Positions 13,341-14,020 of a stretch of DNA of 64,000 nt are shown here, one piece after another. Under the pieces are notes generated by a model. That model was not told where the DNA came from. It saw only the letters and a program-made list of their open reading frames with translations, and made no database searches. Position 1 is the first letter of the stretch. Each line of letters opens with the position of its first letter. Position numbers and translations under genes: made by a program. The stretch is from Acidobacteriota bacterium (GTDB taxonomy: Bacteria; Acidobacteriota; UBA6911; RPQK01; CBDBID01): positions 135,997 through 199,996 of the forward strand of contig CBDBID010000043.1 of assembly GCA_965205565.1 (NCBI GenBank). Direction: 5' to 3'.

Positions 13341-13583
13341 ATGGCCACCCTACGCAGGCTGCTCTTCTTTCTAGTACTGGTGATCCTTGGGGCAGGCGGT
13401 TATTCCCAAAGTAAGAAATCCGAAGAACTGCTTCGTCGTGCTCACCGAGGTGATGCCAAGGCCCAATATTTTCTGGGGACCATGTACGACTTTGGCGCAG
13501 GAGTCCCCCGGGACTACAAGGAAGCAGTCAAGTGGTACAGGAAGGCTGCTGAGCAAGGGGTCCCTCCGTGCCAATATAGTTGA
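13341..13583 (+). CDS. Truncated Sel1-repeat protein (signal peptide plus about 1.5 Sel1 repeats)
   Basis: MATLRRLLFFLVLVILGAGG signal peptide. AQYFLGTMYDFGAGVPRDYKEAVKWYRKAAEQG is a Sel1 repeat. The ORF ends abruptly next to an integrase fragment. Confidence 0.5.
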   Translation: MATLRRLLFFLVLVILGAGGYSQSKKSEELLRRAHRGDAKAQYFLGTMYDFGAGVPRDYKEAVKWYRKAAEQGVPPCQYS

Positions 13584-13603
13584 GACACTTCATCTCTCGT
13601 AAT

Positions 13604-13785
13604 TTAGAGTAGAGGGCGAGAAGGTAGACGACAACGGTGTTCCGAAGACTGCGATTAAGAAAATCCTGGGGCACAAGAACGGATCGGCTACGGAGATCTA
13701 CCTGCACACCGTTGGCGATTCTGAAAGAAGAGCAGTCGAGGTGCTCGAACAGGCGAGGGGCAAGTCTCACACAGGAATGCGATAA
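13604..13785 (+). pseudogene. C-terminal fragment (about 57 aa) of a tyrosine recombinase/phage integrase. It ends 18 bp upstream of tRNA-Arg.
   Basis: The translation ...IKKILGHKNGSATEIYLHTVGDSERRAVEVLEQARG carries the integrase catalytic-Tyr box (LGH...T..Y.H). There is no start codon, and the reading frame is closed by a TAA at 13601-13603. Confidence 0.65.
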
Positions 13786-13803
13786 TTATCGGAAACCCTT
13801 TGA

Positions 13804-13880
13804 GCGCCCGTAGCTCAGCTGGACAGAGCAACGGACTTCTAATCCGTAGGTCGCAGGTTCGAATCCTGCCGGGCGCGCCA
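13804..13880 (+). tRNA. tRNA-Arg (anticodon TCT), with encoded CCA
   Basis: gcgcccgtagctcagctggacagagcaacggactTCTaatccgtaggtcgcaggttcgaatcctgccgggcgcgcca folds as a canonical cloverleaf. Confidence 0.9.
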
Positions 13881-13922
13881 GTCTTTTCAATGACTTACAG
13901 CGACTCTTGCCTAGAAAAGACG

Positions 13923-14020
13923 CCTGAAAGGTGTCAAATGTAACCGAAATTGTAACCGCTCCAATCCAACGCCACCCAACCCCAGCCAAACATCGCCCTC
14001 GGAGACAAGCTGGGTCATTG
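13923..14020 (+). repeat. Conserved tRNA-downstream motif, copy B (cctgaaa...TGTAACCgaaatTGTAACCgc...cccaaccccagccaa...ggtcatt). The first TGTAACC lies 62 nt after the tRNA-Arg discriminator.
   Basis: Collinear with 7044..7122, with the same offset and the same 12-bp repeat period. Confidence 0.6.

Follow-up and report, generated by a model that had tools for sequence, protein, structure and literature searches.

A truncated integrase gene reading toward tRNA-Arg(TCT) in an Acidobacteriota genome: probable scar of a 5'-side-integrating element

An integrase remnant upstream of tRNA-Arg(TCT)

We analysed a 64,000-nucleotide stretch of the genome of an Acidobacteriota bacterium (contig CBDBID010000043.1 of assembly GCA_965205565.1), here called the window, which holds an intact tRNA-Arg(TCT) gene preceded by the 3' end of a tyrosine integrase gene (int). 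Further to the left lie the 5' part of a Sel1-repeat gene and an insertion sequence (IS) of the IS6 family, and to the right of the tRNA gene follow a short conserved flank, a 68-bp motif and an IS1-like element (Table 1). The integrase remnant, or stub, reads toward the 5' end of the tRNA gene and in the same direction (co-directional), which is the reverse of the norm in its family. We consider the stub to be, probably, the scar of an integrative element that once occupied this site.

The reading frame is open from 13603 to 13782 on the plus strand and closes with a TAA stop codon at 13783-13785, giving 60 codons without an ATG, GTG or TTG start; 18 bp separate the stop codon from the tRNA gene. 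Its translation is ...VDDNGVPKTAIKKILGHKNGSATEIYLHTVGDSERRAVEVLEQARGKSHTGMR*, of which residues 11-36 (ILGHKNGSATEIYLH) align with positions 143-168 of the 172 positions of the Pfam profile PF00589 (Phage_integrase; E 5e-4). This part keeps box II, LGH...(T)..Y, with the catalytic Tyr, and the H and Y of the stub sit in invariant columns of the integrase family alignment. The score of 20.3 bits lies below the Pfam cut-off of 27.1 bits because the fragment is so short; the full-length relatives, of about 360-380 aa (e.g. P0085 and P0110), are clear PF00589 proteins with 63-83 bits. A protein word-index search with the 60-aa fragment returned no match, so that a full phmmer scan was needed: against 1.84 billion representative proteins (1.84e9) it gave 192 matches at E<=1e-3, the best at 1.9e-11. 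The closest full-length relative is P0291, with 71% identity over its residues 303-347 of 360.

When the full-length relatives were compared with the whole window by tblastn, the sole match fell at 13624-13773 (E 1e-9 to 5e-14), and no N-terminal or central integrase sequence was found elsewhere in the 64 kb. As DNA, 13627-13897 shares 81% identity with the region of locus L166 that spans the 3' end of int and the tRNA gene (E 2e-72). True integrase homology begins at 13624 and not at 13603; the Val encoded there aligns with the conserved Met/Leu of the family's 'ASxMD'. An apparent extension of this homology upstream to 13459 in tblastn was discarded, as it was weak, overlapped the significant Sel1 frame and lacked HxxR. 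Absent from the stub are Arg-I, Lys, HxxR and the core-binding N-terminal domain. Since Arg-I, Lys and HxxR are missing, the stub is inactive: it is a pseudogene remnant rather than a functional integrase and cannot carry out recombination.

These results bear out the sequence-only reading, which had proposed an integrase C-terminal remnant without a start codon, 18 bp before tRNA-Arg(TCT): Pfam, phmmer and tblastn all agree on it, and the alignment to the C-termini of tyrosine recombinases, which that reading had named as its test, stands far above chance (phmmer 1.9e-11). The frame of about 57 codons that it described is real, with the length corrected to 60 codons and the homology confined to the part from 13624 onwards. 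Against phage records, tblastn of the fragment produced only weak matches (E 0.03-1), every one of them to integrase genes, and a pattern scan of viral contigs found no int-tRNA junction of this kind. Exact-sequence look-ups with four window proteins (SelO, the Sel1 fragment, the IS6 transposase and MreB) matched no contig in the index used.

To place the stub in its family, we rely on two scans. The genome scan yielded 351 relatives, and the figures given here come from the best 80, all full length, which belong mostly to metagenome-assembled genomes of Desulfobacterota and to a few other phyla including Acidobacteria. Among these, 62 of the 80 loci have a tRNA gene no more than 200 bp downstream of int and on the opposite strand (convergent), and none has a co-directional one (0/80); the tRNAs concerned are Arg (ACG, TCT, TCG, CCG, CCT), Thr, Phe, Ala, Lys, SeC and Leu. 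The metagenome scan gave 80 loci ranked by likeness to the window fragment and was made with an alignment-based query; with the fragment alone as query, the same scan found no relatives. Here int adjoins a tRNA gene at 58/80 loci, and the tRNA gene is convergent at 56/80. An xis-like helix-turn-helix gene (HTH_17) lies upstream of int in relatives. At L011 a 47-nt copy of the 3' part of the tRNA occurs 5.6 kb away, and L169 holds a 9.3-kb island whose right attachment site (attR) is a half-tRNA that begins at about tRNA position 31. These half-tRNA repeats, together with the convergent loci, indicate that the family norm is integration on the 3' side of the tRNA gene with crossover in the anticodon region.

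The metagenome loci comprise 41 full-length genes, 24 true 5'-truncated stubs and 15 limited by contig ends. Stubs therefore make up 24 of the 65 assessable loci, with truncation points that range from residue 82 to residue 305 and lie mostly beyond 196; 5'-truncated stubs are thus common in the family, and the one in the window is, taken by itself, an ordinary genomic scar, unusual only in that its element would have lain 5' of the tRNA gene. Many database 'proteins' of about 64 aa that start with MDxNNVP... are open reading frames (ORFs) called from the first in-frame Met. For this reason, and given the spread of the true truncation points, we rejected a site-specific recurrent breakpoint at the 'MD' codon.

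The family resembles the tRNA-targeting tyrosine integrases of islands, prophages and integrative and conjugative elements (ICEs) in that it belongs to PF00589, has int beside a tRNA gene, carries an xis-like helix-turn-helix gene upstream and, in its 3'-side members, leaves a direct repeat of half the tRNA at the distal end. In those systems int lies downstream of the tRNA gene and convergent with it, whereas in the clade of the window it lies upstream and co-directional, and the window copy is a stub of 53 codons only. A sublocation scheme, reportedly put forward by Williams in 2002 and cited in PMC6563490, is said to cover tRNA-targeting integrases with an anticodon-loop crossover.

Co-directional relatives, the sister strain and the flanks

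The co-directional arrangement is present at seven independent loci (L140, L160, L166, L167, L168/L169 and L170). At L160 a full-length integrase of 367 aa is followed by a co-directional tRNA-Arg(TCT) whose spacer, GAAACCCTT, and 17-nt 3' flank match those of the window, and the stop codon of this integrase (TAG) coincides with tRNA positions 8-10. A search with the L160 protein recovered eight protein clusters with ORFs that read into the 5' end of a tRNA (...LKPLMRP*, ...DAPVAQPG*), and it also yielded P0291. A rough neighbour-joining tree included five of the integrases that are co-directional with tRNA-Arg(TCT), all but that of L170, and places them in a single clade that nests among convergent relatives.

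Two further loci extend the picture. At L140 a frameshifted int (638-1835) is co-directional with tRNA-Arg(CCT) and sits apart in the tree, beside the convergent CCT-targeting integrase of L154; this locus, which is one short contig, may represent a second, independent flip of target orientation. At L170 (2560-4851) a full-length integrase of this family lies on each side of a single tRNA-Arg(TCT). On the left, int shares the direction of the tRNA gene and its ORF stops 10 nt within that gene; on the right, int is convergent, with a stop codon 24 nt past the tRNA gene and with xis-like, GntR-like and Rep_1 genes behind it.

The most informative comparison is with L167 (ENA ERZ25072076), which comes from the same species, being 99.4% identical over window positions 15690-24310. 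The two strains have in common the IS1-like element and NifU, NifS, FtsX, BNR and PSCyt/PSD1 genes. Placed and oriented like the stub at this tRNA-Arg(TCT), L167 has a full-length integrase gene of 373 aa that runs 24 nt into the tRNA gene, and upstream of it lie CagX, TrbI, TrbL, VirB8, TraG/T4CP, VirB11-like and nuclease genes. By this gene content L167 carries an ICE-like element at tRNA-Arg(TCT). It shares with ICEs at tRNA genes a VirB/Trb-type type IV secretion system (T4SS), a TraG-type coupling protein and a terminal integrase; neither a relaxase nor a left end is seen in its available 10 kb, and the window keeps no conjugation genes. An island is thus present in the close relative and absent in the window, which supports a former element at this tRNA gene. 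The sequence-only reading had suggested a tRNA-targeted integrative element, now deleted, and had pointed to close relatives as the place to look for it; both suggestions hold, given the full-length int and the T4SS genes of L167.

The two strains differ to the left of the tRNA D-loop and agree to its right. Identity is 52% in the 3' end of int, 63% in the spacer and 92% in the 5' half of the tRNA (D-loop CTGGACAG in the window versus CCAGGATAG in L167), then 100% in the 3' half of the tRNA, 100% over the next 100 bp and 99.7% over the next 300 bp. The D-loop type tracks the integrase clade: CCAGGATAG occurs in L160 and L167, and CTGGA(T/C)AG in L166 and the window. The 5' half of the tRNA gene thus varies with the integrase, and the 3' half, identical in the sister strain, follows the host. 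Such a break in identity fits the signature of a crossover inside the tRNA gene in which the element supplies the 5' half. At this site, the strains of the window and of L167 carry, or carried, different members of the co-directional clade.

A more distant relative, L082 (SelO gene 86% identical), has a T4SS cluster, 83% identical to that of L167, that begins about 5 kb downstream of SelO; in the window the end of SelO is only 1.26 kb from the stub. The position of this cluster, set against the spacing in the window, marks the interval between SelO and tRNA-Arg as the place of the element when present. The IS1-like element to the right, being common to the sister strain, predates the split of the strains. 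Adjoining its right end, L167 has an extra 966 bp (12986-13952, with a 196-aa ORF) that are missing in the window at 15690-15692, which suggests an IS-adjacent deletion in the window. The window in turn holds an IS at 20378-21825 (DUF772/DDE_Tnp_1 transposase, 20409-21818) that is absent in the 99.4%-identical L167, pointing to recent transposition.

Some short sequences beside the tRNA gene are conserved among the co-directional loci. The 17-nt 3' flank recurs beside tRNA-Arg(TCT) at five other loci (Table 1) and also at the attR of the L169 island. Upstream, the GAT(A/G)A core of the extended -10-like element TGCGATAAT is invariant, at the same position, in 5/5 aligned co-directional loci; we regard this element as a candidate tRNA promoter that was probably brought in by the integrating DNA. 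Within the 3' end of the coding region, where the window has one copy of GTCTCACACAG (13764-13774), relatives have two copies in the same place with a period of 11-12 nt, encoding a C-terminal 'SHTxSHT' tail. These direct repeats are conserved at the nucleotide level (L002 7050-7080, L166 6780-6812, L140 1683-1708) and lie about 40-60 nt from the tRNA core in convergent and co-directional members alike. We take them as candidate arm-type integrase-binding sites within the coding region.

Downstream of the tRNA gene, the 68-bp motif (13922-13989) has a counterpart with 81% identity at 7043-7110, in the 3' flank of tRNA-Leu(TAA), and the motif holds TGTAACC-N5-TGTAACCGC. Each copy sits 42-44 nt downstream of its own tRNA gene, and a third copy was not found within the window. 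The sequence-only reading had noticed a conserved downstream motif and counted it toward the lost element; the motif exists, and its DNA is 100% identical in L167. Because two strains with different left elements share it unchanged, the motif does not belong to the deleted 5'-side element. In L140, L168, L169 and L170, direct repeats in two copies with an 11-nt period lie equally far (+45 to +80) beyond the tRNA gene, and those of L169 and L170 run over the 3' end of a convergent integrase gene. The 68-bp motif may be what remains of an arm site of older 3'-side elements.

On the left side, the Sel1 ORF consists of a signal-peptide-like N-terminus (assigned by eye) and one repeat, and it is cut where the second repeat begins; no other Sel1-like sequence was found in the window or in any fetched locus. 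The abrupt end that had been read from the ORF is therefore real, as is the IS6 element some 130 bp to the left: it has 14-bp terminal inverted repeats, GG(G/C)GTTGTCAAGTT, at 12416 and 13213, and its right end lies 127 bp from the Sel1 start and 410 bp from the truncation point of int. An 8-bp target duplication was not found, the left flank GCTCTAAC differing from the right flank CTAAATAC, and none was found for the copy in L084 either. In the 97.6%-identical relatives L084 and L085, the shared sequence stops at the right end of the IS6 element (13213) and gives way to a different gene, not the Sel1 fragment but an antiporter-like membrane protein gene (identified by eye, without a domain scan). 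Since the right flank of the relatives differs beyond 13213, the right end of the IS6 element is a rearrangement boundary. The missing target duplication is consistent with an IS6-associated rearrangement, a behaviour for which IS6/IS26-type elements are known.

The IS6 copy of L084 and L085 has a 160-bp internal deletion relative to window positions 12525-12684, which shortens its transposase to 174-181 aa; the window copy is intact. In the junction DNA between the Sel1 and integrase homologies (13584-13623), no IS end or repeat was found, and a self-BLAST of 13560-13660 matched only itself. The IS-mediated rearrangement put forward in the sequence-only reading thus holds at the IS6 boundary and lacks such traces at the junction; IS mediation could plausibly explain part of the history, but at the junction it is unproven.

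Table 1. Positions of the features around tRNA-Arg(TCT) in the window
Feature	Position	Strand	Details
IS6-family element, 798 bp	12416..13213	-	DDE_Tnp_IS240 transposase 12481-13173(-), E 3e-39, 230 aa
Sel1-repeat gene, 5' part	13341..13583	+	PF08238, E 1.5e-14, residues 39-73
Junction DNA between Sel1 and integrase fragments	13584..13623		about 40 bp, unassigned; Sel1 homology ends to its left, integrase homology starts to its right
Integrase remnant	13624..13785	+	last ~53 codons, ~residues 303-355 of a tyrosine integrase of ~360 aa
Single copy of GTCTCACACAG	13764..13774	+	inside the 3' end of the ORF; from the alignment of five co-directional loci
Extended -10-like element TGCGATAAT	13778..13786	+	shares bases with the int stop codon; 17 nt upstream of where the mature tRNA starts
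tRNA-Arg(TCT), intact	13804-13880	+	ARAGORN; Rfam RF00005, 76.1 bits
3' flank GTCTTTTCAATGACTTA, 17 nt	13881..13897	+	conserved beside tRNA-Arg(TCT) in L160, L166, L167, L168, L170
68-bp downstream motif	13922..13989	+	holds TGTAACC-N5-TGTAACC at 13939-13959
IS1-like element	14481..15692	-	29-nt inverted repeats, DDE_Tnp_IS1; 96.8% identical in L167

Origin of the remnant

Based on these results, we propose, with a probability of roughly three in four, that the stub is the 3' scar of an integrative element which once occupied tRNA-Arg(TCT), belonged to a clade integrating on the 5' side, and was later deleted. The integrase of this element would have been of the L166/P0291 type, and its clade would be a branch of a large family of tRNA-targeting tyrosine integrases. 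Crossover would take place within the tRNA gene, most likely in the anticodon loop as in the 3'-side relatives, so that the xis-int module would land directly upstream of the tRNA gene and co-directional with it. The element would thereby donate the 5' half of the tRNA and the region upstream, probably including a promoter. The lost element was probably conjugative or mobilisable.

In an order and by a mechanism that we infer, a later deletion would then have removed everything to the left of about codon 303 of int, joining the stub to a Sel1 gene that breaks off at codon 80; the IS6 element 127 bp further left would mark a separate rearrangement boundary. The stub probably survived because deletions reaching further to the right would remove the upstream region of the tRNA gene or the tRNA gene itself. 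According to a passage of PMC6563490, which cites Zhao & Williams 2002, integration on the 5' side of tRNA genes is 'considerably less frequent' than on the 3' side. As in the known cases of this kind, the element here would lie 5' of an intact tRNA gene whose 5' half and upstream region are element-derived, as seen from the identity break between strains. What differs is that the reversed clade is nested in an otherwise 3'-targeting family and that several int ORFs end inside the tRNA gene.

Several observations weigh against this account. The displaced 5' half of tRNA-Arg, which would mark the far attachment (att) site, was found neither in the window nor in the up to 10 kb upstream of any co-directional int; these elements exceed the fetched flanks or are truncated by IS3 or by contig ends, and in the window, which has no other fragment of tRNA-Arg(TCT) of any kind, a missing second att site is expected if the element was deleted. 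The case for 5'-side integration is built from the strain comparison and the gene order, and not from a complete element with both ends. The candidate promoter TGCGATAAT has no recognisable -35 element, and a promoter scan with a two-hexamer consensus did not report it. Finally, the Sel1 fragment may be host DNA or cargo of the element.

The missing second att site, which applies to every co-directional element, also favours a reading in which the pair of int and tRNA is not an att junction at all, with tRNA-Arg as cargo of the element, or int merely lying upstream of a host tRNA gene, and the real att site elsewhere; an int ORF that overlaps the tRNA gene could equally suggest a co-transcribed module. 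We regard this as unlikely: strains that are 99.4% identical differ to the left of the tRNA D-loop and are identical to its right, as a crossover inside the tRNA gene predicts, and everywhere else in the family the att sites are tRNA genes, with crossover in the anticodon region. It is quite improbable, too, that the stub is an ordinary remnant of a left attachment site (attL) from a 3'-side, convergent insertion, with only the tRNA gene inverted or replaced afterwards, which would make the shared direction a local accident. The convergent majority in both scans (62/80 genome loci, 56/80 metagenome loci) and the presence of the spacer motif AAACCCTT in the convergent member L002 would suit such an accident; but full-length integrases with the same co-directional tRNA-Arg(TCT), spacer and tRNA-overlapping ORFs occur in L160, L166, L167, L168/L169 and L170, and those placed in the tree, which left out L170, form a clade, so that the arrangement is inherited.

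Isolated integrase fragments beside tRNA genes are likewise known from the SSV-type archaeal integrases, in which attP lies inside int and the gene is split on integration. On that model the stub would be the Int(C) part of a still-integrated element, and many database relatives are indeed short C-terminal pieces, many of them ORFs starting at the same conserved Met. We give this model very little credence, as the shared start is explained by the first Met in frame, truncation points vary (residues 82 to 305) and integrated relatives hold a full-length int beside their tRNA genes. Nor does the window contain an Int(N) partner, and the DNA to the left of the junction is a Sel1 gene rather than a tRNA-like core. 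That the frame resembles a recombinase box II by chance, as the sub-threshold Pfam score and the empty word-index search might suggest, has a negligible probability in view of the phmmer and tblastn E-values (1.9e-11 and down to 5e-14) and of the 81% DNA identity to the 3' end of a full-length int and its tRNA gene.

A more far-reaching version of the deleted 5'-side element can be put forward only tentatively, and we would sooner doubt than endorse it. It holds that the clade flipped its orientation within a 3'-targeting family, that its ORFs end in the tRNA gene and that their 3' ends carry both arm-type repeats and the tRNA promoter. After decay of the element, selection would then have preserved the last ~160 bp of int in the role of promoter for a tRNA gene that is essential and single-copy, and the stub would be integrase DNA exapted for host regulation.

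Other scars in the window and significance

The window holds further traces of mobile DNA. At 57843-57894 lies an orphan 3' half of tRNA-Arg(ACG), covering positions ~27-77 and 84-86% identical to real genes, without its 5' half; three TGTTTCC direct repeats (57730-57770) lie about 100 nt upstream of it, and a full tRNA-Arg(ACG) that matches it is not in the window. This half gene looks like an attR-type scar of a 3'-side element. We rejected a 44-kb island stretching from 13848 to this tRNA-like repeat (57862), since MreB, GroEL and NifS lie in between and the repeat is one half of an ACG-type tRNA-Arg gene and not of a TCT gene.

Downstream of tRNA-Leu, at 7324-10250, a frameshifted SNF2/helicase-like gene is found in pieces (7324-7842, 7757-8116 and 8126-10246; Helicase_C E 6e-14), and its end seems to have given way to the N-terminal part of an opposite-strand transposase (~10030-10171, by eye); this region looks like a decayed island. 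Two tandem copies of a gene for a 442-aa DDE_Tnp_1/DUF772 transposase lie 1668 bp apart on the minus strand at 58995-60323 and 60663-61991. An IS3 transposase fragment that had been suspected by eye at ~14270-14480 was dropped, with no support from Pfam or tblastn.

For the organism, the finding singles out tRNA-Arg(TCT) as a hot spot of recombination in this genome, at which about 20 kb of conjugative-element DNA present in the sister strain has been lost; this is useful for strain comparison and island annotation. For the family, the consequence is practical: tools for finding islands assume an int on the 3' side of the tRNA gene and a 3' tRNA fragment at the far end, so that a clade integrating on the 5' side would be missed or wrongly delimited. 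L170, with a 5'-type and a 3'-type integrase on either side of one tRNA gene, offers a natural system for studying what determines how the core site is oriented with respect to the arms.

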